64,000 bases of DNA from Chiloscyllium plagiosum (taxonomy: Eukaryota). A model generated the notes under the pieces. That model did no database searches and was not told where the DNA came from. It saw only the letters and a program-made list of their open reading frames with translations. The position numbers were made by a program, and so were the translations under genes. Below, piece after piece: positions 21,485 through 63,882 of this stretch (position 1 is its first letter; each line of letters starts with the position of its first letter). Location: positions 1,881,243 to 1,945,242 of the forward strand of contig NC_057753.1 of the NCBI RefSeq assembly GCF_004010195.1, written 5' to 3'.

Positions 21485-22392
21485 CTATTTAAACCATTTC
21501 AACACGAGTGTCACAGGGAATTTCGCCATTTTCTTGAAATGTTCTCTGAACTTACTTTGTGTCCCTGCATAAATAAATGGGTTGATGCAGGAACTCAAAA
21601 GCTGAAGCATAAACCCACCTTCCTCAAGGACAAAATTTGATTCATTGTAGTTTGAACCGGAGAAATAGCTGACATTTTCAATTTGAACACAGAGGAAAGT
21701 CAGGAGAACCAACAAATACGACAGGAGAAAAGTGCCAGAAATGGCAAAGAGTAAAACAATGGACTTCTTCCGTTTTTCCATCTCTGGATCACTTCGATTC
21801 TCTCCATTGCCGATTGCCAGCAGCCTCCTGCGTGCTCTACTGGCTGATACAATGTGCTTGACAGTGAGGACATTGAACAACAAAATCAGAATGAATGGAA
21901 AGCAGGGGTTTAAAATTACTATTACCCAGTCAAATGCAATCCACCAGGGTGAGGTATAAAATATTGATTTGATGGTGCAGTACCAAGTTACTGCATTAAC
22001 TATAAAGGAAGGTTCATAAGTGAAATACAAGGGAATGTTTCTGATACAACTCAGTGTACAGGCACTTGATATAACCACAGCTGCTACTTTCTCAGTGCAA
22101 TATTTCATTTTCAACTTCTGGTAACAAATGGCAATGAATCGATCAAACGTGAAAGCAACTGTTACCCAGACAGATGAGTCTCTGATTCCATAAATTATGA
22201 CTAGACTGGCACTACAGACCAGAGTGATGGACAGGAATGTCATTGGGAAAAACATACCCACAATCCGGTTTAATATCACAGCTGTGATAATGACCAGGAT
22301 ATCCGTCACCGCCATGGAAACCAGGTAATATGTGATGCATTTGGAGAGACCGCACCTGTCCCGTGACAGGATAATAATCACTGAAAGGTTAG
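21485..22392 (-). CDS. Class A GPCR, GPR139/GPR142-like, gene 1, exon 2 (908 nt)
   Basis: Acceptor ctctttttcatag|CTAACCTTTCAGTG; open frame to TAG. Motifs ANLSVIIILS, MAVTD (TM2), FTFDRFIAIC (TM3), NPCFP (TM5), INPFIY (TM7) plus helix 8 SKFRE. Confidence 0.93.
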
Positions 22393-22824
22393 CTATGAAA
22401 AAGAGATGTATTGAATGAATACGTTAAACCGACACTTGTAGATGTTCCCAAAGAATGGCACAAACAGACATTTGGCAAAGCTCAACTGTTTTGAAGCAAT
22501 TACAAAGAGAAAAAAAAGTCCACAGTTAGCACAGAAAATATTTCTATTCAACTGCAGAAACGGATCTCTAATTGGTGGTGAACTCTGAGTAGGATGCAAT
22601 AATGGCAATAGAGATATATTTGACGATCTATGTTTATGAGTCAGGCACAGAAAATCCATTCTGTTCTGTACCATGGAAATTTATATGAAGGTTTAAAGGT
22701 TAAAGTAATCTGAAACTTCAGAAATTGAAGTCTCAGTACAATTTATTCAGCCAAGGAAATGGACATAGAGAATTAGGCGACATTGAATATAAAGATGCAA
22801 ACATCCAGGAAGAGATCACAAAAA

Positions 22825-23118
22825 TGGCACTACTACCTCACAGCACCAGGGACCTTGACTGCATGGCAGCCTCGGGCGACTGTCTGTATGAAGTATGCAT
22901 ATTCTCTGCGTATCTGTGTGGTTTCATCCGGATGAACCACTTTCCTCCCAGAGTCTAAAAATTTGCAGGCTAGTTAAATTGCCCATAGTGTTCAGGAATG
23001 TGTAGTTTAGGCGCATTAATCGAGGGATTTGTGGATTAATAGGGTATGGAAATATGTCAGAGGAACATTTGAGCCAAATGGCCTACTTCCATTCTGTCGG
23101 GGTTCTATGATTCTATGA
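22825..23118 (+). mobile_element. HE1/V-SINE-like SINE in the gene 1 intron
   Basis: gcactactacctcacagcaccagggacc head, degenerate central domain, ttctatgattctatga tail. Confidence 0.75.
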
Positions 23119-23699
23119 AACAGAGACGAAAGCGCACTTCTAAACAGAAAGAACTCTATGATTGCCCGTGTTAATTATCTTAAGCCAATACAACACAATG
23201 TATGAGTAACAATTAATCTAACTGAGCTATTAAAACGCTGCTGTTAGTTTTCCTTCAAAAGCAGTCAGCAGTTCATATTAGTAAATTTCAAATTGTTCTT
23301 TAGCTGTGCAGATAAAACAATGTGATAAATTTGCAGTGTGATTATTGTTGATAGTTATACTGCTCAAAACCCAATCTATGCACAAACAAATAGCCATTCC
23401 CGTGAGATAATTCATGTACAGTAATGGAGTTATGAACATAATAACATAACATTTATGATTTGTAAATTAATAATAAACCGTAAAAAGAAGAGAAAAAGTA
23501 CTATTGAAGGATAAAGAGTATACTAGCTATGCAAAAAGCTTTCCAATTCAAAAGTAGAAATGATAGTCTTAAAGTGCAGAAAATAAGATAGAAAATCATT
23601 GAAAACGTTTTGTTGTTGAAATGGAACGTTATTGCCTTTCCAAGGAAGACAAGACATTCTAACCTGATGAAGGTAAAGTTGCTATATTCTTATTGGACA

Positions 23700-23868
23700 A
23701 TAGGGTTTCTCTCTCGTCAGATAGAGATGACTCGTATTGGTTTAAGTTGAGGTTCACTGCACCTTAGGCGATGTGAGGTTTTCAGAGGCAGAGTCCATCA
23801 TGGTAACCACAACCAATGCAGGAAGTGAACCAAAACCTGCCGCCCAAACAAATGAGCTAACTGACCCC
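23700..23868 (-). mobile_element. Possible old tRNA-derived SINE fragment in the gene 1 intron
   Basis: Minus strand begins ggggtcagttagctca.. with a B-box-like ggttcacttcc. Confidence 0.35.
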
Positions 23869-24060
23869 TTCAAAAGTTCGTCCCACAAATATAGGGTACA
23901 TAATTCATTTGAATTTTACCAAGTTGCAGGAATGCATCCTAAAAAGACTATAAATCATTGGGACTGCATTATCGATATTTGAGAGGCGTTAAATTAAGAT
24001 GAGAAAATTAAACACGCTATTCAAATTATTCTTATACAATATCAAGCGAATATCCGTTAC

Positions 24061-24130
24061 CTGGAACCCCAATAATCGCTAAGATTGGATAATATATAGC
24101 AAACACAAGTCCTTTTGGAAGTCCGTGCAT
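24061..24130 (-). CDS. GPR139-like gene 1, coding exon 1 (MHGLPKGLVFAIYYPILAIIGVP + G)
   Basis: 70 nt ending CCAG|gtaac. The phase-1 join to exon 2 gives ..IIGVPANLSVIIILS.. and a 325-aa protein (978 nt with stop). Confidence 0.88.
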
Positions 24131-24181
24131 TTCTGTCTCAAGCTGCTGATGCCTTTGGCACGACAATGGATGATAGCTACA

Positions 24182-24187
24182 TTTATA
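24182..24187 (-). promoter_or_regulatory. Candidate TATA box of gene 1
   Basis: TATAAA ~52 nt upstream of the ATG, with a CGTCA half-site just upstream. Confidence 0.5.
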
Positions 24188-24996: not shown

Positions 24997-25186
24997 ACGA
25001 CAGATGCATATCTTCGTCAGCATGCACTTAATCAGGGCTGAAACGTGCATATGCACTCAATTCGATTAGATTAGATTACTTACAGTGTGGAAACAGGCCC
25101 TTCGGCCCAACAAGTCCACACGACAGATGCATATCTTCGTCAGCATGCACTTAATCAGGGCTGAAACGTGCATATGCACTCAATTC
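24997..25186. repeat. Perfect 67-bp direct repeat flanking a 56-bp SINE 3' fragment
   Basis: 24997-25063 is identical to 25120-25186; the insert gattagattagattacttacagtgtggaaacaggcccttcggcccaacaagtccac matches the SINE tail at ~15100-15150. Confidence 0.9.
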
Positions 25187-26341
25187 ATTCTAAAGCAGAG
25201 AGAATCGTATCAATAAGTTAATGTCATTGTGAAACTACACAAGCGAATTTGATTAATAGTACAGTGAGAGCAACTAGTAGACAACATTTACGTTCAGAAA
25301 ATTCCCATTCAGTTCGGAACTCTGTTACATTCATGTACCGAGGTACAGTTCAGCACAGTTACATTCAGCACAAACAAAATCAATTGAGGACATTTGCCTT
25401 CGTTGTGCCTAGACCAGGTCAGCAGCGTGATATTCGACTTTTAAGCAAGATCGTCACACGTTGAGGAGTTGGTGAGCGCATCAAATGTGTTACAATGGCA
25501 AGGGTTGCATTTTCTGTGTTTGAAATACGTCTGCCGAATGAAAACAGTTGTTTCAACTGAGTGCCTGAAATACGCCTGGAACAAATCATAGGATCAAGCT
25601 TGGAAAGGACTGAAATAAATAAAATTCTAACCAGAAATCCACTGAGTGCTCCACTATTAATGTTATCATGGCTCATCTTTGATTTTTCAAGTCCATTTTC
25701 CAGTCTTTTGCTCAGAACCATTGAATCTCATACTAATTTAAACTCTATCGCAGCCTTGAAAACACTTGCTTCTGACTCAGATGTGGACGTCTTACTCTGA
25801 GCTTATGCCATCAAAGCGAAACAAACTCTCAGCATCTACCATGTCAGATCCTCTTAGAAATAAATTTATGTCAATAAGGTCACTTATCATTCTTCTAAAC
25901 TCCAATGTCATTTCAACTCGAATAACTCCAATGTCATTTCAACTTTCCAAAGAGGACCAAAACAGTTCATATTTTTCTCGGTGTGTTCTAAGAAATACCT
26001 TGTATAGTTTTCGCCCGACTTCCCCATTTCGATGCTGCTTTACCTGAGATAAAGATTAATACTTCACTTACCTTCCTTTATATCTACAGACCCTTCACGC
26101 TAACCATCAGTGATTTATGCACGATGAACCCAACATGAATTTGTGCTGCAGCTTCCTGCAGTCTATTCAGAAAATAACACATCCACTATTCCACAAAAAC
26201 TTTTTTCTACGTTATGTTCCCTGTACCAAATTTTTGACACAAAGAAATAACTGTCTATATTTCTCTCTAGACATTTGTGTCATTCTCATCAGATGGATTC
26301 CTGCCACTTCTTTGATGCCATACTCATTAGCCTCATTTATG

Positions 26342-29300
26342 TGTGGCATTAGTATTCCTTTAACAAGGCTATGCTGTCCTAGTTTTATATTTCAGAGCTG
26401 TTGTAAAGGGAGAGATTCCGATATATCTGGACTTATTTACTTGAAAAATCTTGTTTAAAAAAAGACTTGTACAATGAAAGGGGAGTCGCCCGTTCTCCCA
26501 GTTTAGGGTTTGGTTTTAGCAAGCTATTTAGTTTGCAGCAGCTGGTCAAATTTTAGCTGTGAACCGAGAGAATCTGCTGGAGAGCAAAGAAGCAGCTCCA
26601 AGCTGATCCTGTCTCTCTCTGACATCTCCCCTGTAAAAGCTTGTGTTTGATTTTACCTTTTTTTTAGCCAAGTGGCTGTCTTTGGGAATGTTGTAAGTAT
26701 TTAGAATAGCATCATTTATTTGTGATAAGTTCGATTGGGTTTTCATGTCGGTTAAGTCATTCCAAATTCGGTTTCTTTTGTTCATGTTTCATTCAGCTAT
26801 CTCTAAATAAATTCTGTTGTGATTAGAAATTGGAGGTTGGGTCAACTCTTTTATACGTGGAATATCCACTTTACACTTGCTTAAAAAAAGTAGAAAAGCT
26901 AGGGTCTGGGCCACATTCTTGAAATGTTTTTGGAGATAGGTAAAATTCGATTGATAATGAAATAACTTGAGTTAGAGGCAAAAGGAAAAGAAAGAGAAAA
27001 ATAAATGAAACTGTTTGAATTATAATTAAAAGCCGAGGAAAGTAAAAATGAAACAAACACCCCAGCAGACCAAAAAGAAAAGCACAGAATCGCTTTAGCA
27101 GAACAAAACGAAACAGAGAGTGACAGTGAGATACAGAGAAGGGAAAATAAAATGTGAGAGGAAAGGAAGAAACAGAAGGAGTTAGAACTTCAGAGAATTC
27201 AACTGAACAGGATGGAGATGAAGGTTATAGGTAAACTTGCTGAGAAAGACAGTGAGGATGAGCAAAACCATGGAAACCGAAGGCCTGATGGGTATCTCCT
27301 TAAATATTTTCAAGTATTGCCTAAATTTGTTGTAAAAGTCTTTATCGTCTTATTGGAAAAGGTGGCTAAGCAAATGCAGTGGCCAGTAACCATGTAGATT
27401 ATGTTGATCTAAACAAAAATTGTAGAACGAGCTGGTGATGTATTCGTATAACTGTCAGAGGAGTTATCTGGTGTGTATGTGGAGGTGAAGAAAGCCACTT
27501 AAGTGCATTTGAGCTTGGTCAGAAGTCTGAAGACAGCGTTTCAGGAATCTAAGGAGGAACTCTGATCAAACCTACAATTGAGTTTGAAAGGATCAAACAA
27601 AGCAATTTTCGTAAGTGAATAAAGTCAATAAGAATAGAGCAAACATATTACACTCGGAGAGAGACGACTATTTGTGAAGAGTTCAAAATTAATGTCCTGT
27701 GGTAATGAGAAGTCATGTGGAAGAGCAGAGAGTTAAATTGGCAAGATTAGCAGCAGTCGAGAGTGTGGTGCAGGAAAAGCACAGCAGATCAGGCAGTATC
27801 CAAGGAGAAAGTCTTATGCCCAAATCCTCGATTCTCCTGCTCCTTGGATGCTGCCTGACCTGCTGTGCTTTTCCACACCACACTCTCGAATCTGATCTCC
27901 AGCATCTGCAGTCCTTGCGTTCTGCCAAGAGTAGCAGCAGCCATGGCTGATGGTTACGATTGGTTCTTGAACCAAAGTTTGGCCTCCAATATTAATTTCA
28001 ATCTGTGTGGTACAGACAGTGGGTTCAAGAGAAGTTCACACGTTGCAACTGGAAGGTAGACCTCGGGAAAGTTCACAAGGATAACTTTCCACAGAGAGAA
28101 AAGGAAATCCTTGAGGAGGATAGAGAAGTTGAAAAGCTCTAGTGTTTTCACTGCAATAAAGTAGGCTACGTGAAATCACATTAAAATGAACTGTGAATCC
28201 AGGTGTAGGAAAACAGAATGATGCCGCGAATTTTATTGGAGTGGTAACAAAAAACACCACGGGGGCTTAAACACTGTACCAGAATCTACAACCTGGTTGG
28301 TAAAGGAGGAGATACCAGATCATGTTAAACCACATGCCTGCCCAGCTAATGCTTCCTGGCATAGGCCAGAAACAGCAGGTACAGAGTTTACAAAATTAAG
28401 AAATGCAGAAACCTCTCAATCTTTGGTGTTGAAAGATAAAAATGTATCACTGAAAGACTATTCCCAGAATAAGTGCTGTTAACTGGAATTGACGGTGAGA
28501 CAAGAAGCGCACAATTATCTAGAGTGAGGTTGGAGGGTCTTTTGAAGAGAGAAGACGTCGTGGTAGGAGTACTGGACAAAATTTTAGTTCCAGGAATACA
28601 ATTTGTCCTTGCTAACGATTTGGCTGGTTCAGAAATAGAACTGCTACCTACTGGTTTGAAAAGCCACTGGAAACTCAGGCAACTGGAATATTACAGGAAG
28701 CTTTTCCTGAGTTGTTTACTAACTGTGTGGTAACGTGTTCTTAACGTCAGTAATTGAAACAGGAAACAAATCAGAGTGTATACATAAGAAACTTGAAGTG
28801 GAATCATAGAGGACACTGATTGATCAAACGTTTAAGGCAAAATGGGAGGAAATGGATGGCAAAGTAGAAATGTTTAGTTCTGAGAAATTAACTTAGTTAC
28901 AGCAAAAATGATAAACTAAAGCAAACGTGTAAAAAAGTATACACGGAAGTAGAATCTAGATGTATCCGGTGTGCTACTGTTTTAAAATGACTTCTTAATG
29001 AGGAAATGTCGGTCATCATATATTCAAGCGGTTTAGAAATGGGCAGAAGTTCATCAAATCGGATCTCCAGTGGGTTATAGAAAGGAAGTGTTGCAGGTAA
29101 CGCACGAACTGACAGTAGGAAGTCATTTAGGGGTAAGAAAATCTCAAGCGAACATACAAAAACATTTCAACTGGCCTGGACTGCCGAAAGATGTATTCGA
29201 ATTTTGTCAGATATGTCATACATGCCAGGTAATTGAAAAAAAAACCCACTGGCAGTAATATAACCTGAACATTTAATACACATTCCATCATTTGAAGAAC

Positions 29301-30510
29301 CTTCTACAAATATCTTAATTGATTGTGTAGGGCCTGTACCTAAAAGTAAGGTGGGAATTAATTTTTATTAATAAAAATGGATGTGTTCACTAGATTGTCT
29401 AACGACATTCCATAACGTAATAGCATAGATAAAAGGATTGTAGTGGAGTTACTCAAAATTTTCACTGGATATGGACTACCCATAGTGATACAATCACATG
29501 ATGCATGAAAGTTCACATCAAAGTTATTCAAACAGAATACAGAAGTTTAGGAAAAAAATTAGAATTAAAGTTCCCTGCGTACCATCCATAAACGCAGGAA
29601 GCACTAGAAAGTTAACCTCAGCCATGAAAGACCACGATGAGTGCTTATAGTCAAGAAGATCCAGGTGATTGGGATAAAGGAATCCCGTTTGTTCAATTTG
29701 CTATCAGAGACGCACCAACTGAGTCGACCGAATGAAGTTGTTAATTTGAATTAACTTTTGTGCATGAAGTGAGAGGACTGTTAAAGTTGTTGAAGGAGAA
29801 TTTGCTAACTCAGAATTCAGAGACCACATGTTTGGACTATAGAATCTAAAGGTATCACATCATACAATGAAACAAGAAGCAAACAAAATATCAAAAAAAA
29901 CCTCACAATTTTGATATCGGAGATTAAGTGTTAGTGTCCCTTCTAGTGACAGGAGAACTTTTAAAAACAAAATTTAGCGGACCTTATCAACTCGAAAGGA
30001 GTATGAGTGATTTGAAAGATTTGATAAGGAGTTCTGACAGAAAGAAATCTCACAGACTGTGTCATGTGAATATATTGAAAGATATTTTGAGAAGGTAGGA
30101 AAGCCAAATGTGACTGGATTACTGCTTACAGCTCAGAGTGATATAACTTCAGAGGATTTTGAACTGGAGGTCACTAAAATCATAATAGACAATAGGGATG
30201 CTGTCAAAATTGGGGTAAGTTGAGTTATCTTCCAGAGAAAAATCGAAATGACATGAAAGAGTTCATACAACTGCATGAAGACATATGTGGGATTAAGCTG
30301 GGAAGTCCCACATATTATGCATGATGCAGATATACGAAATGCTGTTTCGATTAAGCAACATCCTTATAGCCATAACTCTCTGAAGTTTACACTGGTTCAA
30401 AACGAGATTGAACGCATGCTCCAAGACAACACAATTGAACTAAATTATAGTGACTGCAGCTCACACATAGTAATGTTGCCAAAACCATATGCATCCACTG
30501 GTTATGCTCA
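26342..30510 (+). mobile_element. 3'-truncated Gmr1-like Gypsy LTR retrotransposon 2
   Basis: LTR ~26342-26935 resembles the reverse complement of the element 1 LTRs. Then gag with CFHCNKVG (~28143), protease (GIQFVLANDLAG), integrase HELTVGSHLGVRK..CQICHTCQ (29070-29258), SGPY (~29980), and RT start IKQHPY..SSHIVMLPKP (~30350-30490). Confidence 0.88.
27757..27925. mobile_element. Hairpin (5'-inverted) Penelope-like terminal repeat inserted in gag
   Basis: Inverted arms tcgagagtgtggtg..ccaaggag and ctccttgg..cacactctcga; 15-bp target duplication caaga(t/g)tagcagcag at 27742-27756 and 27926-27940. Confidence 0.82.
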
Positions 30511-30534
30511 CTAACATTTGTCATAAATATATAT

Positions 30535-31850
30535 TGCAAACATGATTGTTGATTTACTTCAGAGCAGCTTGGTTTGTCACGTATCATCACTTCGCTAATT
30601 AACATCAGCATTGTGACTTCCAAAAAGGCGGCATTGTTCTACTCCACTCTTTATCTGAAACATTCTGTTATGGTGGGTTCTGTCATTTCTTGCCTTGTTC
30701 CGCAGTGGATCATAGATAGGATGGTGTTCTACGTGTCTGTTGTTAACGTCCAGTGTTGAGAAACTGGCCTTTACGAATTTCTGTGTGTATATTTGGTTAA
30801 CTTGACCCAAGATAGTTACGTAATCATAGTCGAATTGATGTCCCTCCTTGGCTGAGTGTATGGAGGTCAGTGAGAATTGATTATGTCATTTTACTGCCAG
30901 TTGGGGGTTCGTGCATTCTCGTACCTAGCCTCCTTCCAGTCTATCCAAAATGGCGGTTGTGGCAGTCAGTTCAAGGAATTTTGTATAATTTTGTATGTTA
31001 AATGTATTTGGTCTTTCACTCTTGACAGCAGTTGATATAATGTGGGTATGGGTTTGTGTTCGACTATGAAACAGAGTGATTGTAGGAATCCTGTTATCAT
31101 TTCCGAGATATTCTTCATGTAATTTAGGGTGACCAATGTATTTGGCTGCACTGTGTCTTTATGACGTTGTATGTTCAGTAGACATCTGCAGATGATGCTG
31201 ATTATGCATCCGTTGTTTGCTTTAACATTGTGGAGGTGTTCTTTACTTTTGCGTCGTTCTGGTAAGTCACAGTATGTTGCTCCTCTTTGGGATCGTGTTC
31301 TGACACAGTTCTGATCGTGGGCGTTGGAATGATCGCTGTTGAAATTAAGGATTTGGTCAGTATGGGTTGCTTCCCTGCATAACTTGATTTGGAACTCATC
31401 ATTTACTGGACATCAGACAGATAAGAAGATGACGAGATATATGAAGTCACAAACCCAACTGGGAGTAAACTGACCCGACCAATTGTCAATCATCTCACTT
31501 CACTCTGACAAAGAGCGCCATCAATTTGACTGGGATAACGTAACCATTTTGGGGCAAGCCAAACAAAGACACACATAGGATTTCCTAGAGGCATGTTTCT
31601 CAACTCGGAACGCTTTCAAAAGCCATGTAGAAATGGATTCTATACACGAGCCACTACGGAGCAGGACTGGAAATGACACAGCCTTTCATAACAGATTGGG
31701 TCAGATAAAGAGTGGAGTAAAACAACAACGTGTTTCGGAAGTAGCACTGATGACGTACCCAACAGAATGAAGGAACGTCTAAATACAGAACAACCAGCTC
31801 GGTGGGAAAAACAACAATCACATCCATATTTCCAGCTACAAATCTCAAAA
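30535..31850. mobile_element. Penelope-like element remnant with inverted terminal arrangement
   Basis: Minus arm ~30535-31410 has a degenerate GIY-YIG region (HKPIPTLYQLLSRVKD..HFG*TGRRLGTRMHE); plus arm ~31420-31850 (ILGQAKQRH..FLEA) is an inverted repeat of ~30535-30900. Confidence 0.75.
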
Positions 31851-34800
31851 ACCTGAAATGTGTTGTAAATAATTGTCGCCCCTGCACTTATCCCTGTGCT
31901 ACTCTACTAATTGCAGATTGCCACCTAGAAATTGTCCCACTTTACCTAAATCTGTCTTCTATTAACTAATCACTTCTCATCCATCCAAATATATGATCTA
32001 GACAGCATGGGCAGCTATTAAACAGCCTATGTGCAGGACCTGATCAAACAATGTTTGGAAATTCGCATGTTACATCTATTGGTTTTCAATTACCATCCTA
32101 CTTGCTGCCTCCTCAATGAATTATATTAAATTTGACTGGCATATGTCTAATGTTGATAAAACCATGCTGAATCAATTGAATTCATTTATGTAGTTCTAAA
32201 TAGTCTACAACTGCATCATTTGTAAGAGATTGTAACATTTCTCTAATAACGAATTTTAAGCTAAATTACCTGTTTATTTTTTGTCTTCGTTTTTGTTTCC
32301 CTATCCTTTGGGACTTTTCGAGAAGGTAAGGAGTCTTGGGAGTTTACTGTTAAGTATTCAATACCTCTTCAGTTCTTGTTTTGACATCCTCGGATGCAGC
32401 CCATCTGGTCTAGGAGATTTACTGCGTTTAACCTAGTAATGGTTCTCTAGCGATAATCATTGCATTTATTCACCCCCACACCCACGCTTGTTCCTTGACT
32501 ATTTAGTATTTTAGAAATTCTGTTCGTGGTTATTTACATGCAAGGCTGAATTCCCACTGCCTCGCCTCCTCCACCTCAGGCCTCTTCTTGAGATTTTATG
32601 GAGGTCTATTTCTATATTTTTGCAAGACCCTTTTTCATTGTCACCTCTTCTTCATTTGATGATGCAGTATTGTAGTAATAATATGCCTGCATTTGTGATA
32701 ACTTAAGGGCAATTTTGACTCACACTAAAACATGCTGAGTAAAAGTTCATTAAAATCATTAATACTGGTCCCTGCTTCATTGACTTTAAAACTGAAAAAA
32801 CAGAAGGTGCTCATTAGTTCAGTACGGCATGTAAACCAGCTTGAGAAAATAGGCAAAGGAGCATGTGTAGGTCATCAGCCCTTCCAGCCTGCTCCACCAT
32901 TCAGTAAGATAACTCTTTATCTTTATGCCTGCATATTTAAGTTGAAATGTCTGCCAGCGTCAACATGCCTTAGTATTATAGGTTAATGCGAATTATCTAT
33001 ATCAGCTTTTAATTTCTGAATTGAATTAGCATCTAACATCATTTGAGGAAGCTGTTCCCAAAGCTCTACTGCTCTTTCAACATAAAATTAATTAATAACA
33101 TCTCTCCTGAATGGCCTGGCCCAAATTCTGAGACCATGTCCCTCAGTGCTAGAACCCTCAATCAATGGAAATCATTTATCTTTATCTATGCTCTGTTTCC
33201 TTCTGAATATGTTCGAACCCTGATTGGATCACTCCTAAACCATATAAACCGTGTAGAATGCAAGATTAATTTGCCTAATATCTGATCTTAATTTAACCTC
33301 TGAAGGACAAGTATCATCTTCATAATCCTGCATTGAACGCCATTCAGACCCAAAACATACTCCCTATAGTGCAGTGACCAGGTCTGCTAACAGTGTTCTC
33401 AGTGGAACCTAAGTAGAGTTTTGTACAATTGTGGTGTAACATCTGAACATCTGGAGTCTTACATTGCAGCCCTTTAGATATGAAGGCCCGCATTCCTTTA
33501 CCCATTTCGAATATTTTCTGCATCTGTTTATGGCATTTTACACATTTATGTATTTGAATCGCAACATCTCACTGGACATCCACTGCATTTAATTTTGTGC
33601 CTTCTAATGAACATCGTTGTTTTGCAAAAGACAGCAAATAACGGATTTTAAAAAAGAAAACCAACATAGGCTTCTATCTACAAAACGTCATTATCCTAAA
33701 CACAGGTTCTGTGAAGGCATGAGGTCATAGTTAATCTGCTGCCTGTATGTCTCCAATTACAATGCAAAAGATGGATGTTACGTGTGATCCTTTGAGATGT
33801 AATAACGCATGAATGGAAATATTAATGAAATAAAACTGTTCAATATGAAATTATCCAGTTAACACAACTTTCATTACACGATATCCACATTTTCCTGCAA
33901 CTAGTAGCTTCTGCGCTCCTGTAGGTTTAGGCGATGGATTTCATAATCAAATGCAAGGATTTCACTACTGAAGTTCGGCTGGTTCCAATCTGGCTTTTGA
34001 GAAGTATCAAACTGCTCTCTCCGCCTATCAATGTTTCTGTCACTTGACCGTTCTTCCACACGTTTGAGCCCAAGCTCCCTTGTTTGTAACTCTTTGATCC
34101 CTTTGCATTAACTTTCCCAACTTCTTGGTTTCCCATTGTATCTGAGTACTCTGGTAACTCTTTCACACTTTAAAAGTGTCCAAATCAGGTGGATTAGCCA
34201 GAGGGAAAGCAAGGGTACGGGTATATTGCAGTGGGTATGGTTGGGATGCTCTTCAGCGAGGATTTCTGGATGCAATGGGCCAAATGTCTTACTTCCATAC
34301 TCTGGGGTTTCTTTGAATTGAATGAACACTGTGGCTTTGTGTTCTTGATATTGTAGATAAATTGGATAAGAAGAAAATCAATAGGAGTAAATACACGATT
34401 TGTACAGTTCAAAGTAGTCACCATCCAACCATAATGGATGTATTCGTTGTTGATGATTAGGAGCAATGGTAGAAATATGAGAATATAGTTACAGTCTTTC
34501 AATGCGTCTTCAATATTGGTGCTGTCATAGATGAATGAAGGATTGCATGTGTTACATCTTTGTAACTAAAATGTAGGTAAAAACCAAGCAATCGTGAGCT
34601 GGTCATCCAAACGTCAAACTTGAGGGGGAAAACGAGAGCGATCATAATCCGCCAAAGAAACAATTTTCACTTCGAAAAATCGTGAGATAACAAATGACAA
34701 GCTATTTGGCTTTTTTAAAAGTCAAAACCTGACAAACATGTTTGAGTTGCTGAAATTTCATGAATGATAAAGGTAAACTTGTTGACGTTGTATGTGTTTT

Positions 34801-35139: not shown

Positions 35140-35440
35140 TTTTCAGTTATCATGTGGGGTCCTGGGTAGTGTTGAAGAACAGGAGCTGCAGTACATAATT
35201 CTTTGAAGTCTGAGTCACATGTAGACAGGGTTGTTAAAAAACCTTTTATCACTCTTGCCTTCATTTCTCAGAACATTGAGTGTAGGAGTTGGGACACTGA
35301 AGTTGTATGGGATGTTGGTCAGTCCTCGTCTGGAATACTATGTTTTGTTCTTGTCGTCCTGTTATGTGAAGGATATTCTTAAACTGGAGAGTTCAGAAGA
35401 GATTTACCATGATAATTCCAGGAATGGAAGGTTTGTGTAG
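35140..35440 (+). mobile_element. Old CR1 RT C-terminal fragment
   Basis: LKLYGMLVSPRLEYYVLFLSSCY. Confidence 0.7.
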
Positions 35441-35697
35441 AAGAAGAGGCTGGATATGTAGAACAAAGAAGAAGAAGTGCAACACAGACGATGAACAAGC
35501 CCTTTGGCTTCCAAGCCTCGGGCAAAACATTTTGCGTTTCCATACTCGAACTGGCTTTACTTGCTGCCTCTGTTTCATTCTATTCCCTTCCAATTCATTT
35601 ATACGTCCAGGTCTTTCTTGACTGCTGCTATTGTGCCTGATTTCACCACCTTCCCTGGCAGTGCATTCTAGGCACTCACCGCCCTTTGTGTGAAAAA

Positions 35698-35816
35698 NNN
35701 NNNNNNNNNNNNNNNNNNNNNNNNNNNNNNNNNNNNNNNNNNNNNNNNNNNNNNNNNNNNNNNNNNNNNNNNNNNNNNNNNNNNNNNNNNNNNNNNNNNN
35801 NNNNNNNNNNNNNNNN
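35698..35816. other. Assembly gap (119 N)
   Basis: Run of N. Confidence 0.99.
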
Positions 35817-36225
35817 GAGAGGAAGTCGTACGAGGCTAGGTTGAGAGTTCTCGGCCTTTTCTCGTTGGAACGGCGAAGGATGAGGGGTGACTTGATAGAG
35901 GTTTATAAGATGATCAGAGGAATAGATAGAGTAGACGGTCAGAAACTTTTTCCCCGGGTACATCAGAGTGTTACAAGGGGACATAAATTTACGGTGAAGG
36001 GTGGAAGGTATAGGGGAGATGTCAGGGGTGGGTTCTTTACCCAGAGAGTGGTGGGGGCATGGAATGCGCTGCCCGTGGGAGTGGTGGAGTCGGAATCATT
36101 GGCGACCTTTAAGCGGCATTTGGATAGGTACATGGATGGGTACTTAATCTAGGTTAGAAGTTCGGCACAACAGCGTGGGCCGAAGGGCCTGTTCTGTGCT
36201 GTATTGTTCTATGTTCTATGTTCTA
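35817..36225 (+). mobile_element. Young CR1 3' end
   Basis: Uninterrupted ORF2 C-terminus (ORF 35841-36152), CpG-rich, (TTCTATG)n tail; close to the copy at 44430-45309. Confidence 0.92.
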
Positions 36226-36419
36226 TTAAACTGGAGAGTTCAGAAGAGATTTACCATGATAATTCCAGGAATGGAAGGTTTGTGTAGAAGAAGAGGCTGG
36301 ATATGTAGAACAAAGAAGAAGTGCAATACAGACGATGAACAAGCCCTTTGGCTTCCAAGCCTCGGGCAAAACATTTTCCGTTTCCATACTAGAACTGGCT
36401 TTACTTGCTGCCTCTGTTT

Positions 36420-49340: not shown

Positions 49341-49928
49341 AATGAGTTTTTGCTCGCTTCTAATTTCCACAGTTTACAAAATTTGAGGGTTCTCAGAAGC
49401 CTGCAGGCGAGTTTATTAGAATGGATTCAGCAAGGCAACTTGGGAAGACATTTGATTAGGTTACAAGTTTAGCAACAGGTTTAAATAAGTTAGAGAAAGG
49501 CAATGTATTTCCATTATCAGAGCAGAAAGGGTAGTTTTAGCATGTTTTTTAGATTACAGTTCTGTATTATTTTATAACAGGATAAACTGAAGGCCAAGAT
49601 CAGGATTCCAGCACAAATGAGTGGCATGAAAGCAGTCATAATTTCATTGGTTGGTGACAGCTATTGATTTGTTTTTACATATAATAGGGTACTTTCTGTT
49701 TGAAGTTAAATCGGGAACACTTTTGCAGAGGGGTAAGAAATTTCTAAAAAGACGTTAAATTTGGGATAAAGTAATTAAAAGAAAAAGGCCAGGCCGGGTG
49801 AAATGTTGTAATTGCACAATGTTTCAACTTGTGGACCAAATTATGTTTCATGTTGTAAATCAGAAACAATACCCGAAATTGTGGGAAAAGCACAGAGATC
49901 TGGCAGCAGCTCTGCAGAGCGATGAAAG

Positions 49929-49964
49929 TTAACGTTTAGGATCGAGTGACCGTTCCTCAGAACT
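49929..49964 (-). ncRNA. Degenerate hammerhead-like motif (third repeat family)
   Basis: gtt-CTGAGGA-acggtc-actc-gatcc-TAAA-CGTT-aac within a ~49860-50010 repeat. Confidence 0.45.
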
Positions 49965-50659
49965 AATTTCTTTCAACAAATGCTGAGTGATCTGCTGAGT
50001 TTCTGGAGCAAGAGTTGGTGGCTGGAGTTACGTCAGGTCAGAGCTGATAAGCTGGAGACTGAGTTCCGAACTGAAACACACCAGGGACGTGGACAGTTAC
50101 CGCGGTACTAAGTTTCAGGAGGTGATCATGCTCCCCAGATCAATCAGCTCTATTTCGTTCAGGGACAGTGGAGTGTGATAATGAGCGAAGTTGGTCTGAA
50201 GGAAAGAAAACTCACGTGTTTCTTGCTTAGTCTGGGCTCTCGAACACTTACAGTGATGTGTTACCTATTTCAACACTCTTTGGATAACAAAAGCAGCTGC
50301 TCTCAACCTGATAAATGAATGCTGGAATATTCAGCCAACTTCTGTGGAGTGAAAACATACTTTACATGATGTGCCATCTCTGGATATAGAGCTGCTTCTC
50401 ATTCCACAGATATTATAAGTCATATTTGCCAGTGTTCATTTCAAACATACAATTGCAGAGAGACTATAAATCTGAAATATTGTTTAAATATAAGGAGGGT
50501 CACATTAAGATGGGTTGCAATAAATACAGCTGAAGCGTGATCATTGAATATTTAGTTACAGCACAGCTACGTATGTTTATGATTAACAATGGAACCAACA
50601 ATTCTTACGGTGTGCATGAATTTGGAATTTATGTTCCACTCAGATTATTCATGATCTCA

Positions 50660-51250
50660 GAATCATAACGTTGAACTGCACAGAAACAGACGTAACGTCC
50701 AACAACTTCATATCGACCAAATACCCTACTCAATCGAGTCCCATTTGCCAGCAACTGACCTATATCCATCTGAATTCTTGTTATTCATTGACTCTTCTGG
50801 ATGCTTTTTAAATGTTGTATACTGCATCCATCTACACAACTTCCTCTGGCTGTTTGTTCCATACAGGCGCGACCCTGTTCATGAAAACGTTGCCTCTTAA
50901 ATACGAGGTTGACAGCAGCTGCTTTTAAGCATGTCATTTCTCAGTTTAACACTATGGCCTCTAGATTTGGACTCCCCTGCCCTGGGAAAAAAGACCATGG
51001 CTGTTTCTGTTATCTTTTCCACTGACGATTTTAATGGTCTGTGTGGTCACCACTTAGACACAGAGACTCCAGAGAAAATCGGTATTGTCTATTCAAGCTC
51101 TCCCCACAGCTCACACTCTCCAGACTTGGCGATCTCCTTTTAAATCTTTTGTGAACTTTTCGGTTTGTCAACATCTTTCCTTGAACGGGGAGATCAGAAT
51201 TGAATGCAGTATTACTGAAGTGGCCTAACCAAACAATTATACAGCTCAAC
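50660..51250 (-). mobile_element. Old CR1 3' fragment
   Basis: Antisense CR1 tail and cctctagatttggactcccctgccctgggaaaa; paralogous to 18470-19000. Confidence 0.65.
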
Positions 51251-51401
51251 ACACTCAAAGAGCTTGATGGCATATTCTTGATCGGTCTCCTTATGTTTAC
51301 TTATATGGGCATATTCAAGTTATCCACACAGGTGTAAGCATGAAATTTAAATAATTTAAATATTTCAAATTAAAGGTTAGCTTTTGAATTGAATTCATTG
51401 A

Positions 51402-51540
51402 TTTGGGAGTGTGGTGCTCGAAATGCACAGCAGTTCAGGCAGCATCCGAGGAGCAGGGGTATCAACGTTTTGGGCATAAGGTCTTCATTGGGAAGCTGTG
51501 ACTCTCACTTCAGCATATGCAATCCTCACTGTCTTCCAGA
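51402..51540. mobile_element. 5'-inverted Penelope-like terminal repeat insertion
   Basis: Same family as 8729 and 27757; exact 12-bp target duplication tgaattcattga at 51390-51401 and 51541-51552. Confidence 0.75.
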
Positions 51541-54044
51541 TGAATTCATTGAATCCTTTGCTCTCTACATGGAAATGATATTACCAAATGGTTCCTTTCA
51601 AGGAGCTCAAAGCCAGCAAGAGAACCCCTGAATATCCAAGGAAAGCGCTGGAGTTCAAATTAGTTCAGAGATGGAGGAAAATGAGGAATGAAGACCTGCG
51701 ATAACTGCAGAACTAAAGGTGCCTGGGAGGTTTTAGCAACATTGTTTTAAGTTGAAAATCTCGAATGAATCTTCCCCTGATGCAGCGTTTTCCCCTCCAG
51801 CATTGTTTCACCCAGGGAACTTTATAGGCTCTCAGCTGGCATCTTTGCTCCACAAGATCATACTGCGGGTGCAACTGTCTTAGTCACTGATCTTTATTTG
51901 TTCTCCTCATCAGAATTCACTAAAAACCTTGCAAGCTTTTGTAAATGTTGAAATGATCCCTTGTTAATCAAAATCAAGTTGGCATACATCAAGAAAAACA
52001 GATGAAACGCTGTGGCACTCCCAAAGTAACCTTCCTCCAATCTAAAACTTAACCGTTAATGACGACCATATCATGTCAGTCAGGCAATTTCATATCAATA
52101 TTGCTACTGTGACTTTTACTTCATCAACAACAGAGATTTTCTCTACAGAGTGATATGCAGCAATTTAGTAAGACATTTGCTCCACGTTCGTCGCATCAAT
52201 TATACTACCGTCATCAACATTTTGATGCCTCAACAAAAAATCACACGGAAAATCTTGGGAGATTAGTTTCCTTCAATAAATCTGTGCAAGCTTTCCTGGA
52301 ATGACAAACACTGGTCCTAATGGCTGTGAACTCTTTAACAAATTATCATTTCTGAATCCTTTCTTACTACCGAGATAATCTAACCAGGCCCCGGTGCAGC
52401 TAGTAAACTTTCGTTGATGGTTAGTGAAGATTTAATATTGTTTGCCAGGAACTGTGATGGAAATGAGCGAAGTGATTCAATTTCAATTACAATTAAATGA
52501 AATCGATAAAGAACTCGATAATTAAAAAATAATTTAAAAAAGCTCAGTCCACCTGTTTGTATTGTGGAACCGAAACATTCCATGGACTTCACAATTTGTA
52601 ATATGATATGGAAATGCTGGAGACGCTGAATGGCAACGACAGATTAACTGGAGGCAGAAATTAGTTCACGTTTCAGACCTTTGAGCAAGTGAGAGGGCTT
52701 AGGGATGGATATGGTGCAGAGATCAGAAGACGAACAGGATGGAAATTTGTGGAAGTTGTGAAATAAATGGGGACAGTCAAGACTCAGAGAATGTGTGTAC
52801 ATGGAATGTGAATAGAGAAATAGAAGCTTGGAACATAAAGGAAATTACAAAAAAAAGTCATATCAGAAAACAAAGCCAGAGAAAAACACCAAATCAAATT
52901 GGTCAGAAATCAAATCACAGAAGTCTTGAACTTCGACTCCTCAAGACGGACAAACGCATTCTATTACTCTCCACTTCGGAACACTCCTGCTGGCTTCACT
53001 TAGCCCCTCCCCAGCAGAACACCTGAGGATAGGGAGTTACTTCCCTCATTCCCCTCCGTGGCTCCTCAGAGAGGTACATTCGACTGTCCAACCTCTGGGC
53101 AGCACTGGTTAACGAGTAAGGAATCTGCTAGCTGCTAGGTTGTAAGTTTCTGCTGATCCAGTACTGGATGACAGAAAAATCAGTGCGTCATTTGCTTTCC
53201 AGCAATGTTTGTCTTTCTGCAGAGCGTGGATGACCATTTTAGGGCGCTGTCAAACCCTGGCCTAGTTATACACATTATAAACCCTTCAACCCAGGTTCTG
53301 TCGCCATTCCATCTCCTTCTTTTGTTTGCAAGTGCTGACTGTTCTTGTCCCTGAAGAACATTAGTGAACAAATTTCGTATATAATGACAACCTAACAACT
53401 TACATGATCATTTTGTTCCATTTCAGTGTCACCTCCATACAGCACGAGATTCATTACCTTGACTTCACAGCTGGTCTGTGATTAGGAAATTCTCTGTCAT
53501 TGTATTTCTTTCTTCCATCATATATCAGGTTCTTAGGAAATTAGTAGGGGTGGATTTACAGTCAGGAAACTCAACATAATCATTTTAACACAACAGAATT
53601 ACAGGCATACTTTCTCCTTCTTGCAAGGAAAGTTTGGAATGAATTTTATGGGAGCAGCGTAGAACCAGTCTTGCCCACAAAATGTGAATTGCATTAAGGG
53701 ATAGCAGAAACCTCTTTCTTGATATTGAGTGACGCTGAGAACATCGTACTCTTTTGACGTGAGATTAAATGCAATATTAAGATGGCAAGATCGGACATAT
53801 CTCCATTTTCATTAGCTGTTCCTCCTGAATCACCGCTTGCCTTTTTAATTCCATGTGTTTGTACAAAAAATACTGGTGTATCTCCAGGGACTGAGCAATA
53901 CAATACAGAAAATAAAGCAAAAAAAAGTCAAGAGTACAGCTTAATCAAGGTAACACGTGTAACTGAACACAAAAGTAATGTATAGACTATAATTGTAATT
54001 TCGAATTGCCTTTTACTGTTATTTATGCGATTTTAATGTGATCG

Positions 54045-54151
54045 CTGTCTAAATCATTTAAACAGGAGTGTCAGTGGAAATTCCATCAATTTCGTTAACT
54101 GCTGTCAGAATTTACTCAGTTCCCCTGCATACATAAATGAGTTGGCACATG
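54045..54151 (-). pseudogene. Truncated GPR139-like pseudogene (TM7 end and C-tail only)
   Basis: Reads SCANSFMYAGELSKF*QQLTKLMEFPLTLLFK*FRQ, colinear with gene 1 SCINPFIYAGTQSKFREHFKKMAKFPVTLVLKWFK*; downstream flank homologous to both genes. Confidence 0.87.
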
Positions 54152-55972
54152 AAAACGAACAGGAGTAGGTAACTCAGCCCCTTCATTCTGTTCCTTCGTC
54201 AGGTGATGCAGTATTGTAGTAAAAATGTTTCTGCGTTTGTCACCAAATAGTCAACCTGGGATGATACAAAAAGCGTGAATACAAAAATTATTCAAAGTTC
54301 TTCATAGTTATTGTTGTTCTATTGACCTTCAATCTAAACTACAGAGGTGAGCATTAGTTCAGTGCAGCATTTAAATTGACACAAGAGAACATGAATAGGA
54401 ATATGACTTGATTATTCAGCCCCTTGCTTCGGCTACACCTTTCAGTAAGATCGTGCTTGATCTGTATACTTACATGTATAACTCAATGTGACTGCCCTTG
54501 GGCCCATAACTCTGAATTGTCTTCCTCCATATAAAAATGCGTATCTCAGATTTAAAGTTGACAATTCAATTAACATTGACCACTATTTGAGAAAGAGAGT
54601 TCCAAATCGTGACTACTTTGAACATGTAGAAATGAGTTCTCACAGCTCTTCTGAATGGTTCGGCCCTAATTGACATCTTAATGGATAATACTGTTCAATA
54701 ATAAATTTCACACTTAACAGAACATTAATCACACAGTATCCAAAACATCTTCCTTCATCTAGTAGCTTCTGAAGTCCTGTCGCTTTCGGCTGGATATTTC
54801 ATATTGACACGCAAGGAATTCGTTGTCTAGTTGGGGTGGCTCTCCTTTCGCTTATGAAGTATGAATAGACGTAAGTAATCCCAGTCTCACTGTATAGCCC
54901 TCCCACCCTATGCAGCCCATCACCCCACCCTTGTAACTCTTGTCTCCCTTGGCATTCACTTTCCCAGCTTTGTGGTTTTGTATTCTCCTGGTCTGCCAAT
55001 TTTGTTTCATATTACACACTAGTTACCTTTGGATCTTGACTGCCCCTCTACCACCAGCCTTCCTGACTGTTCATGTTTATCTTCTCACTGCTGCTCTAAT
55101 TCGCGGTTGCCTGTTTCACATGTTTGTTGCTGATAGGCTCGTCAAAAATTCTGTCTATTCTTGTACATTTCTGTGATTGCTTATCACCGTGATTGAACTT
55201 TATTGGCAGTTTGTCTGTCTTTCAATGACGAAATTGCCAACTCTTGGAATGTAGTCTTACTGTTGCATGCCTGTTACATTAATGGAGTGCATTGTTAAAA
55301 CATACAAGTCGAATTTTGATCACTTGATTGACAAATTAACGGAATATATGTCTTCCTGCATGTTTGGAATCAAATGTTGAAAGTAAATCTGAATCGTTTC
55401 ATTAGTTGCAAAGTGAACAGTAGTGGCTTCTCTCCAAAACGTGGCATTGCTCATGTGATAAAATCCATCTGCGCAGCATATTACGAAATATTACTTGAAA
55501 AGTCAGCAGACGCCTGAAAGGAGTCAGAAGCAAAGAAATGCAGAACTGTTGAGATCTTTTCCATAATCTGGCTAACTATGTTTGATGTCTTCCTTCAGGT
55601 TGCATTGGAATTGAAGACAAACATTCCAGGAAGTCTAAGCCTGTTTGATGCATAGTTGCCGAGAGTCATCCAGATAGGTGATGCTCATTCAGTGTACATT
55701 GTGTTGAGGTATTGCCTTCAGTATATTCGAACTCAGTGTTCTTCTATATCTTTGATGATCAATATTGATAGTGATTTTGGTGTCAGTACTATTCAACTAG
55801 GTCCTAATCAGAAATGTATTCGAGCTACGGAAGCTGGTCCCCTACTGCTCAGAAGACTATTAGCTTCGAAGTCCCGATAAAGTAAAACAAAAGTTGCGAA
55901 TTGACCTCTGACGTACTTAAAATTGCTTCTATAGCAGATAGATTACACTCTAAGCAAGACCTATGAGAAAAT

Positions 55973-57930: not shown

Positions 57931-58104
57931 TTCAAGGAATTCAAGAGAATTCTGTCTCTGTGTTCATGCATTAAAATGTGTATGATCTTATAATAAAGAT
58001 GGGGCTTTGTATGATAGATAAATTGGAGAAGAAGAAAATAAATAGGAGTAAGTAAACGATTGATACAGCTCAAATTAGTCAGATTGATACATCCTCGTTT
58101 GAGG

Positions 58105-58212: not shown

Positions 58213-58214
58213 GT

Positions 58215-60500: not shown

Positions 60501-62127
60501 ATTCCCCGCTGTTCCTTAACTAAGTTCCACATTTCAGTTGCACTTAACAACAACTTTCTCAAAGCAGGGGGAATTGAGTGCAGTATTCCAACAGGGACCA
60601 AACCAATCTTGTTGAATTGCTGAGCAGACTCAAAGATCGCAATGACATATCCCAGATTCTTTTTCATATCTTTGTATGCATTGTTATGTTGGGATCTTCA
60701 TTAGACCATTATTAGAGCTTTAAATAAAGGGCTAGATTTCAGATTGAATACGTCTGATCTCTGCTCTGAAAAAGAAAATTACCAAAGTGCTTTGGATGTA
60801 GCTCTGCGCCAGCAAGAAAACCAGAGGATAAGTCAGATAAGTGGCTGGTTTCAACTTCATTCCGCGAGACTAAGACATGATCAATAAAGCCCTGGGAGAA
60901 CTGGAAAAATTGCAAATACGTGGGCACGTTTTGGCAACACTGGTTCAGACTGAAACCCACAAATAAAGCCTCCCTGCTCCTCAAATTTCTGCTCCCGCCC
61001 GGAAATTTTCTTCTTTGGGACCAGTCCAGGTTCTCGACTGCCTCCTTTGCTCCACAGGGATCAGAGTGGATGCCGAACTGTCTTGGTTATTGACCTGCGT
61101 TTTGTTCTCCGAATCATATTTCACAAATAAAAACATTTACAATCTTCTTGAAATGTTGACCTCGTTAGTAAAGTTATAAGTCTTTAATATACATCAGAGT
61201 AAGCATATGAACTCCTGTGGATCATCCGAGACAACCCTCCTCCAGCGTAAAAAATAACAGTGATTAACGACTATTTCCTATCAATTTTTTACTGTCAGTT
61301 TTATTTCACTAACTTGAGTGATTTTCACCCCAGACCATTATGACGTAATTTATTAAATAATTTCGACCACTTTTTTGCAAGATTAACTGTATTACCTCAA
61401 GAACAAAAAAAAAATCAGATAGCAAATCTTGTGAAATTATTTCCCCTTCATAAATTCGTGGAAGCTTTCCTGATTTAACAATCATTTGTCTGAATGGCTG
61501 TGAACTGATTGCCAAAGTAACTTTTCTCTCATGTTTCCTACTACCGTGGTTAAACTAATCAGTCTCTGGTACTGCTTTTAATCTTTTATTGGTTGTTAGT
61601 GAAGATTTAATCTTATTTACCAGGAGCTTTGATTTAAATGAGTGGACTGATTCAGTTCCAATGCCAATGAAATGGCAACTAATAAAGAATTCGATAACTA
61701 ATCACATTTGACAACACATAAACTACCAATCAAAAATGCGATGAGTGAACTACTAATGATGATCCATCAGACTGTTAGAATTGTAGAATGGAATAACAGC
61801 GTAAATGTGTAAAACTTGAAATAACAGGAGCATATTTTGGAGACATTGGCGTTGATAGATTCTGTGGAGACAGAACTCGGCTTATGTTTCAGTCTGTGAG
61901 CAAGCGAGAGGGAGCAGAGGAGATGCCAGGTCATAGTGGGAACATGAACAAAAGCTTAAGTTTGTGTAATGTTTGGGCGGCTGGAAAAATTAATTGATGA
62001 AAATGTTCAAGTTGTGAAAACAACAGGAACAGTCAAGACACAAAGAATGTGTCTATATCGTGGTGAATTGAAACCTTCAATGCAGAGAAAATCATAGAAG
62101 AGCGAAAACAGAAAACACCTTTTACAA

Positions 62128-62142
62128 GGGGGGGGGGGGGGG
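62128..62142. repeat. G15 homopolymer
   Basis: 15 consecutive G. Confidence 0.95.
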
Positions 62143-62553
62143 TGAGCATATAGGTACGCTGTTTAACTCTGGTCCAGTTATAGATAGATCAATGTTATAC
62201 CCCTGCCTCTCTCACCTCTCTATGTGCTTCCACTCTTTGCAAGTGCTAACATGGTTTCCTTCCCTGAAGGACATCAGTGAACAAGTTTGTTTTATAATGA
62301 CAACCTAGCAGCTTTAATTGTCAGTTTGTTCCTTTCAATGTCAGCTCCACAGATTACAACACTCATTACCTCGCTCTCACACCAGTTTGTGCTTTAGTCG
62401 ATTCTCTGAAATTGATTTTTTTGCTTCTGAGTTAAATCAGGTTCACTGGAAATTAGAGGGGGTGACTTGCAGTCAGGAAACTCGATGGAAATATTATGGC
62501 ACAGCAGCATCACTGTCATACTCTCTGTTTTTGCAGGAAAAAGTTGGATTGAA

Positions 62554-62559
62554 TTTAAT
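62554..62559 (-). promoter_or_regulatory. Candidate polyadenylation signal (ATTAAA) of GPCR gene 2
   Basis: Homologous to gene 1 AATAAA at 21069-21074; ~415 nt after the stop. Confidence 0.4.
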
Positions 62560-62974
62560 GGAGCAGCGTAGAGCCAGCATGGCGTGCAAACTAAGTGTTG
62601 TATTGAGGGACAGTGGAATCCACTTTCATGACGTTGAGAATTATGGAAATTGTCAAAATGCCCAAGTTTATAAAATCCTCATATTCCAGATCATCATAAT
62701 ATTTTGAAGTGAAATTAATTACATGATTGAAGTGGGAAACCAGACATTATCTCAGTTTTAACCACGTTGTCCGATTTGAATCGCATTTCCCCCCTCTTAA
62801 TTTCATCTGTTTCAAGTGCTGGTATATCTCCAGGGACTGTTGATCACAACACAGAAGTTTAAACAGGAGATTTCAAGAGCACAGCCTATTCAAGATTACT
62901 TGTGAATTAACATAAAAATAATAATCTATCATTTTGAATACAAATTGCATTGTACTATGATTTAAATGTGATCA

Positions 62975-63882
62975 CTATTTTGAAAATTTACACACTAATA
63001 TCAGGGGAAATTTTACCAAATTCTTTAACTGTTCTCTGAATTTACTTTGGGTCCCTGCATAAATAAATGGGTTGACGCAGGAACTCAAAAGCTGAAGCAT
63101 GAACCCACCCTCGTCGAGAATAAAATTTGAATCATTGTAATTTGAACCTGAGAAATAACTGATTTTTGCAAATTGTACATAAAGGAAATTCAGGAAAAAC
63201 AACAAATATGACAGGAGGAAACTGCCCGAGATGGCAAAGAGTAATGCAATGGACTTCTGCCGTTTTGTCATCTCTGGGTCGCTGTGATTTTCCCCGTTGC
63301 TACTGATCCGGAGTCTCTTTCGGATTCTACTGGCCGATAGGACATGCCTGACAATGAGTGCATTGAACAACAAAATCAGAATGAATGGAAAACAAGGATT
63401 TAGAATTGCTATGATCCACTCAAATGCAACCCAATAGGGTGACGTATAATATATTGATTTGACGCTGCAATACCAAGGTACATTGTTAATTATAAAGTTT
63501 GGCTCATAGGCAAAGTACAAGGGAACGTTACTGATAAAGCTCAGAACGCAGGTAGTTGCTATAACCACAGATGCTACTCTCTCAGTACAATATTTCATTT
63601 TCAGTTTCTGGCAACAAATGGCAACGAATCGATCAAAGGTGAAAGTGACAGTTACCCAGACAGAAGAATCTCTGACTCCATAACATATCACAAGACTGGA
63701 ACTAAAGACCGGGGTGATGAACAGGAATGTCATTGGGAAATAAATACCCACAATCCGGTTTAATACGACAGCTGTGATAATGACCAGTAGATCCGTTACC
63801 GCCATGGAAATCAGGTAATATGCAATGCATTTGGATAGACCGCATCTCTCTCGTGACAGGATAGCAATTACTGAAAGGTTAG
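62975..63882 (-). CDS. GPR139-like gene 2, exon 2 (908 nt); exon 1 is outside the window
   Basis: Same acceptor (ctttctcatag|CTAACCTTTCAGTA) and identical exon length. Open frame NLSVIAILSRERCGLSKCIAYYLISMAVTD..DRF..VNPFIY; 203/276 residues identical to gene 1 by hand count, no indels. Confidence 0.92.

Follow-up and report, generated by a model that had tools for sequence, protein, structure and literature searches.

A tandem cluster of GPR139-related receptor genes in Chiloscyllium plagiosum and its large, possibly chemosensory elasmobranch family

Organization of the receptor gene cluster

We analyzed a 64,000-nucleotide stretch of the Chiloscyllium plagiosum genome (NC_057753.1, positions 1,881,243 to 1,945,242 of the forward strand; hereafter, the window), which carries a tandem array of genes for G protein-coupled receptors (GPCRs) of class A related to GPR139. 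Coding frames were located by a six-frame scan of the window, which returned two 312-codon open stretches of class A GPCR type, both on the minus strand, here named genes A and B. Both are members of an elasmobranch-wide multigene class A GPCR family that arose from one GPR139-related ancestral gene. The array comprises the following features:

24061..24130, minus strand: gene A exon 1, 70 nucleotides, from the start codon to the middle of transmembrane helix 1 (TM1), with a phase-1 GT donor
22393..24060, minus strand: gene A intron, 1668 nucleotides, GT..AG, containing short repeat fragments
21485..22392, minus strand: gene A exon 2, 908 nucleotides, from the end of TM1 to the stop codon, class A GPCR
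24182..24187, minus strand: candidate TATA box (TATAAA), 57 nucleotides upstream of the gene A start codon; a consensus match only
21316..21321, minus strand: candidate polyadenylation signal (AATAAA), the first downstream of the gene A stop codon; a consensus match only
62975..63882, minus strand: gene B exon 2, open frame, 908 nucleotides
54048..54152, minus strand: copy C, last 35 codons with two in-frame stops; bases 73% identical to A and 72% to B
49532..54047, minus strand: copy C 3' flank, co-linear with the 3' flank of A (17448-21584) and, from 51826, with that of B (61028-63083), at 66-75% identity
54204..58081, minus strand: unit C flank from far upstream, now adjoining what is left of the coding sequence and piecewise homologous to 32660-34420
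613..3484, minus strand: upstream flank of an inferred fourth unit, co-linear pieces matching 25633-33611 at 64-76% identity

Gene A is complete in the window, with two exons encoding 325 amino acids. Its start methionine is shared by 74 of the 80 homolog models that fit the TM1 pattern, and the intron of the family genes lies just before N1.50, which we take to be its position in human GPR139 as well. Of the 120 closest database models, 16 have no exon-1 motif ahead of the splice junction; this 70-base first exon is thus frequently overlooked by automatic annotation.

Exon 2 of gene B is identical to that of gene A in length (908 nucleotides) and acceptor phase, and the two exons share 224 of 301 amino acids (74.4%) and 82.2% of their bases. 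Pairwise comparison gave 0.14 nonsynonymous (dN) and 0.47 synonymous (dS) substitutions per site, with a dN/dS of 0.30, which indicates purifying selection between the pair. Both genes match Pfam 7tm_1 and present the features of class A GPCRs (seven helices, N1.50, D2.50, DR3.49-50, the cysteines of TM3 and extracellular loop 2 (ECL2), and NPxxY), with exceptions at 3.25 and P6.50: P6.50 is missing in both, and gene A is also devoid of W6.48. In gene B (62978-63880), the codon for 3.25 specifies Phe instead of the TM3 cysteine, which is 98% conserved in the 120 closest matches; the disulfide to ECL2 would thus be lost, and gene B may therefore be impaired or an early pseudogene. Moreover, since its exon 1 lies beyond base 64000, gene B as a whole cannot be called intact. 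A first-pass annotation of this DNA had described two intact, co-oriented paralogs with about 74% amino acid identity; shared strand, identity, exon 2 length and acceptor phase all stand, but for gene B intactness extends to exon 2 only.

The same annotation had announced a dead third copy. Copy C does carry two in-frame stops, but it is not a full-length pseudogene: the far-upstream flank of its unit (54204 onward, similar to 32660 onward, and corresponding to about 8.5 kb upstream in unit A) nearly abuts codon 278, which implies that a deletion removed the promoter, exon 1, the intron and most of exon 2, leaving only the last 35 codons. As for the fourth copy deduced from flanking sequences, direct co-linear non-coding similarity (64-76%) was indeed found between 613-3484 and 25633-33611, and between 17448-21584 and 49532-54144. 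The spacer to the left of A is thus a degenerate duplicate of the A-C spacer, implying a fourth unit, but the window represents that unit by flank homology alone, and its gene would fall to the left of base 1, outside the interval of the first-pass annotation (21485-63882). A tblastn search of the window with approximately 250 family proteins produced repeated matches only at A, B and C, with one or two matches in each of the other bins. Tandem duplication in units of about 25-30 kb, plus deletion, makes the cluster grow and shrink; the duplicated units and the deleted copy C bear out the proposed tandem birth-and-death mode.

Approximately 68% of the window has a self-match, and much of this self-matching sequence is presumably of the long interspersed nuclear element (LINE) type, judging from reverse-transcriptase-like frames. 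At 24997-25186, some 0.9 kb upstream of gene A, an exact direct repeat of 67 bases bounds a 55-base repeat fragment; the arrangement resembles a recent insertion, the duplication being unusually long. No 26-base satellite array was found upstream of this gene. At 35379-36541, a 319-base near-identical duplicate (98%), possibly an assembly artefact, stands beside a 119-base N gap (35698-35816).

Size and distribution of the family

With gene A exon 2 as query, 1468 proteins were matched at E ≤ 0.001 among 4502 candidates. The best 120 of these 1468 matches comprise 119 named elasmobranch (shark, ray and skate) proteins from 13 species and one unnamed protein; by hand tally, 79 of the 120 belong to the horn shark, Heterodontus francisci, and for 56 of these 79 one and the same 59.5-Mb sequence is recorded. 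The top matches to gene A are whale shark and zebra shark proteins (81-83%), and A, B and two whale shark genes form one branch with support of 100/100; as gene A groups with the whale shark genes, the cluster is older than that split. The length of 325-326 amino acids and the reading frame are kept in most of the closest matches across sharks, rays and skates. In addition, a library of 50% clusters contained 101 representatives at E ≤ 1e-30, while a metagenome scan returned one distant locus (27%). In one sequencing run, summed contig depth was far higher over the coding region than over the flanks, with at most 46 contigs overlapping one site, which points to many paralogs and provides no copy number. 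The large expansion foreseen in the first-pass annotation, as opposed to only a few copies, is thus found at the sequence level, with 79 horn shark proteins within the best 120 of 1468 matches.

Family proteins are already in RefSeq under automatic names such as 'probable GPR139', and the automatic names of the 120 closest models include GPR139, GPR15, capa, sex peptide, FMRFamide and TRH receptor. Searches of the open literature, subscription journals being outside the coverage, found no paper that describes the expansion, and none for 'GPR139-like'; nor was the family label found in the supplements of PMC8455134 (one unrelated GPR142 row), PMC11589584 and PMC13188829. Overall, this is a genuine and large receptor family that seems to have gone undescribed and whose sequences vary in the manner of a repertoire.

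Relationship to GPR139 and to conserved single-copy receptors

Neither A nor B has a family-specific match to the odorant receptor (OR), TAAR, V1R or T2R families, Pfam 7tm_1 being the only match at E ≤ 0.1. Searched alone against solved structures, gene A did not retrieve GPR139 at E ≤ 0.001 and gave weak OR matches of about 24 bits, which do not appear within the first 60 results of the profile searches. Built from 51 close members and run against PDB sequences, one profile ranked GPR139 first with 52.9 bits, a margin of less than 1 bit over the TRH receptor (52.1 bits), and a wider 35-sequence profile gave 108 bits for GPR139 and 89 for the next receptor. The AlphaFold model of gene A was mediocre (predicted local distance difference test, pLDDT, 65), and Foldseek with this model did not separate class A receptors, placing GPR139 at rank 30. 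By the profile searches, GPR139 appears to be the closest characterised receptor of the family.

GPR139, like GPR142 a class A orphan activated by L-Trp/L-Phe, has two coding exons as the family genes do, but is one gene, whereas the shark family has many copies. The consensus of the family shares about 28% of its residues with human GPR139 (counted by hand in the profile alignment); zebrafish GPR139 is reported to be 70% identical to the human protein (PMC7318219). The Trp/Phe site of GPR139 consists of F3.33, H5.43, W6.48, R6.51 and N7.38/39 (PMC5430874), and none of these five residues is kept in A or in B; among the 120 closest matches, 91 keep at most one, and the maximum is three. Genes A and B are hence not GPR139 orthologs, but belong next to GPR139. 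With such low consensus identity and none of the five pocket residues, the earlier notion of a family distinct from true GPR139 gains support, but amino-acid sensing, suggested at the same time, becomes doubtful for A and B. GPR210A and GPR210B, named in coelacanth, gar and teleosts (Rinne et al. 2019, PMC6504862), are likewise orphan lineages next to GPR139/142 and outside mammals; the survey that named them includes no cartilaginous fish and reports no expansion. At greater distance, a common origin of the GPR139/142 group with invertebrate MIP/sex-peptide, FMRFamide and myosuppressin receptors has been described (PMC8514136), and in the nearest invertebrate clusters of the Atlas 17-59% of members have a nematode Srw domain, which is a lead only.

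Two conserved single-copy lineages were recognized next to the shark family, their placement in the trees being based on sets without true GPR139 and GPR142, no ortholog of which occurred among the first 271 proteins retrieved. For the first (P0237 and P0390-P0409; 'probable GPR139' at NCBI), one divergent representative gave 25 matches: 20 amphibian species with a single cluster apiece, a sturgeon protein and, at 32-33%, four members of the elasmobranch family; the species with this gene include frogs, a newt, a caecilian and a sturgeon. The amphibian members are 66-74% identical to each other and about 30% identical to gene A, with a profile match of E 1e-48. This amphibian/sturgeon lineage groups with the shark family with support of 93/79, its grouping with the other conserved lineage was not rejected by the approximately unbiased (AU) test (p 0.133), and its gene is probably the sister of the shark family. 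Both have a short N-terminus, the D-R motif and, ahead of TM6, a DPE-x-x-x-RR motif that the second, wider lineage lacks. Four of the five GPR139 pocket residues are kept in 20 of 21 amphibian/sturgeon proteins, with F3.33, W6.48, K6.51 and N7.39 in a near-invariant pocket. The amphibian gene has Ser and Asn instead of N1.50 and D2.50. It seems to encode an unnamed orphan GPCR, and was not found in teleosts or amniotes by one word-index search, which does not prove absence. A gene distribution that tracks electroreception was considered and dropped, as frogs keep the gene.

The second, wider lineage (P0226 and P0272-P0389) has mostly one cluster per species and extends over coelacanth, sharks, sturgeon, teleosts, amphibians, turtles and squamates, with no mammal or bird name among the best 120 of 145 matches. 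It has shark members of its own, on a branch separate from the expanded shark family, and may correspond to GPR210A or B. Two NCBI models of this lineage are named as TMEM183A isoforms, suggesting that the gene adjoins TMEM183A. The short N-terminus is common to both conserved lineages.

Diversification of the ligand pocket

To describe variation within the family, 28 pocket positions were mapped, corresponding to the common ligand-contact set of class A receptors, 27 of which fall within the TM ranges used; site entropy was compared between pocket and other TM sites, and mean identities were taken from at most 60 sequences per set. In the 120 closest matches, D2.50, DR3.49-50, C3.25 and the ECL2 cysteine, P5.50, N7.49 and Y7.53 are 97-100% conserved. 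The ratio of mean entropy between pocket and other TM sites was 1.81 in the 79 horn shark paralogs (mean identity 0.766), 1.68 in the 120 closest matches and 1.65 in 48 distant members; it was 0.18 in 20 amphibian orthologs of matched divergence (mean identity 0.773), and 0.77 in 120 proteins of the wider conserved lineage. Pocket sites of the horn shark paralogs are also more variable than other sites in the extracellular half (permutation p 0.012, which is descriptive only, as the sequences are related). Moreover, 61 residue combinations occur at the five GPR139 pocket positions in 120 shark/ray proteins, as opposed to 2 in 21 amphibian/sturgeon proteins. At the sequence level, the signalling core is thus kept and the ligand pocket diversified between copies; a pocket that varies among paralogs and is conserved in orthologs is what the ligand diversification supposed in the first-pass annotation would predict.

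Proposed function and alternative explanations

The OR, TAAR, ORA/V1R, T2R, formyl-peptide receptor (FPR) and MRGPR families consist of clustered genes with birth and death, a compact coding region and a variable pocket. The shark family resembles them in all these respects, but by sequence it belongs to none of them, the profile pointing to the GPR139 group. The informative evidence, that is, family size, clustering, turnover and pocket pattern, fits a diversified ligand-sensing repertoire. Most likely, the family would serve as a receptor repertoire for many different small water-soluble molecules or short peptides, with each paralog binding different small soluble ligands, and would most likely be sited in an outward-facing chemosensory epithelium (nose, taste, skin or gut). 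GPR139 couples to Gq/phospholipase C (PLC), and by analogy the family would probably signal via a G protein along a route of this type. Calcium assays have served in studies of GPR139 (PMC5430874). Since the single-copy amphibian gene keeps the GPR139 pocket, the ancestor probably responded to an aromatic amino acid or a comparable carboxylate. An outward-facing chemosensory role is, in our view, a real possibility, held with confidence somewhat short of even. More tentatively still, we propose that this is an overlooked shark and ray chemosensory family, larger than the OR, TAAR and V1R sets together, which was recruited independently from a GPR139-like amino-acid sensor and whose amphibian counterpart preserves the ancestral pocket.

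Transcript evidence comes mainly from one single-cell run, the tissue of which is coded. In this run, 35 reads with about 31 start places match 39 bases of the TM6 region with other letters, and, on hand translation, their unmatched ends read on as a paralog with W6.48 and P6.50 in place, like P0209; 34 of the 35 have the same direction, sense or antisense depending on the library kit. No spliced reads across the gene A intron were found in about 2% of that run. Another run yielded one short coding match, and none of the runs listed for gene A is on record as RNA. One family member appears to be transcribed somewhere.

Several observations weigh against the chemosensory interpretation. Gene A itself is without reads (at least 99% match) in about 2% of the single-cell run. 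The top 50 genes of a catshark brain-and-olfactory library include no GPCR (PMC11979771), although sparse expression of one receptor per cell would also leave GPCRs out of such a list. Moreover, two presumed sensory hallmarks lose their weight: the short N-terminus also occurs in the single-copy relatives from amphibians and bony fishes, and a coding region of two exons is present in GPR139 too (PMC7318219). Both characters are inherited, so neither points to a sensory role. In addition, the differences between A and B are not enriched in the pocket, with 6 among its 27 sites and 33 among the 147 remaining TM sites, and a variable pocket can also result from relaxed constraint.

It is also conceivable, if rather unlikely, that the receptors form an internal repertoire on immune or barrier cells, sensing microbial, parasite or damage-derived molecules as mammalian formyl-peptide receptors or MRGPRs do. 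Large clusters and a variable pocket would be equally expected in that case, and the paralog represented by the 35 reads was, in fact, found in a single-cell library of coded tissue. Furthermore, MAS1 and related receptors are missing in cartilaginous fishes, which leaves their role open (PMC8455134), and immune cells express OR-kappa, a gene from a chemoreceptor family (PMC13113109). Nevertheless, the profile searches place GPR139 nearest among human receptors, which is a receptor of the brain and not a chemoattractant receptor, and immune expression of the family was not found in the three supplements mentioned above (PMC8455134, PMC11589584 and PMC13188829). The catshark has 2 OR, 6 OR-like, 3 ORA, 3 TAAR and 2 TARL genes, and expresses trpc2 in its olfactory neurons (PMC11979771); with so few OR, ORA, TAAR and TARL genes, no MAS-related receptors, and OR-kappa in immune cells, both the chemosensory and the immune interpretation have a gap to fill.

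A largely neutral expansion, in which repeat-driven duplication would have produced redundant copies that diversify little in function while their pocket drifts freely, is improbable. It could account for the extent of self-matching, much of it LINE-like, in the window, for the death of copy C, and for the lack of pocket enrichment among the differences between A and B, but it is at odds with a dN/dS of 0.30 at a dS of 0.47, with the length and frame kept in most of the closest matches across sharks, rays and skates, and with a cluster that predates the split from the whale shark.

Least likely of all are receptors that read peptides from the animal itself or from its own species in reproductive or neuroendocrine control (gonad, sperm, reproductive tract or brain). 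Paralogs that number in the dozens to hundreds, and whose pockets differ, would call for a family of ligands to match, and none is known; an N-terminus this short also leaves a large ligand little surface. The origin that the GPR139/142 group shares with invertebrate peptide receptors (PMC8514136) and the expression of some catshark V2Rs in testis (PMC11979771) would speak for such peptide receptors.

Implications for cartilaginous fishes

Published accounts credit cartilaginous fishes with few olfactory GPCRs and, more broadly, with few GPCRs of any kind (PMC8455134, PMC11979771), an odd picture for animals that depend on chemical cues. A family with no fewer than 79 distinct members in a single shark species, under the label 'probable GPR139', alters that GPCR count whatever the tissue in which it functions. 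If the family is sensory, a chemoreceptor repertoire would have arisen independently once more in vertebrates; if it acts in immunity, it may stand in for the MAS/MRGPR receptors that these fishes lack. The single-copy amphibian counterpart makes the origin of the family testable in Xenopus.

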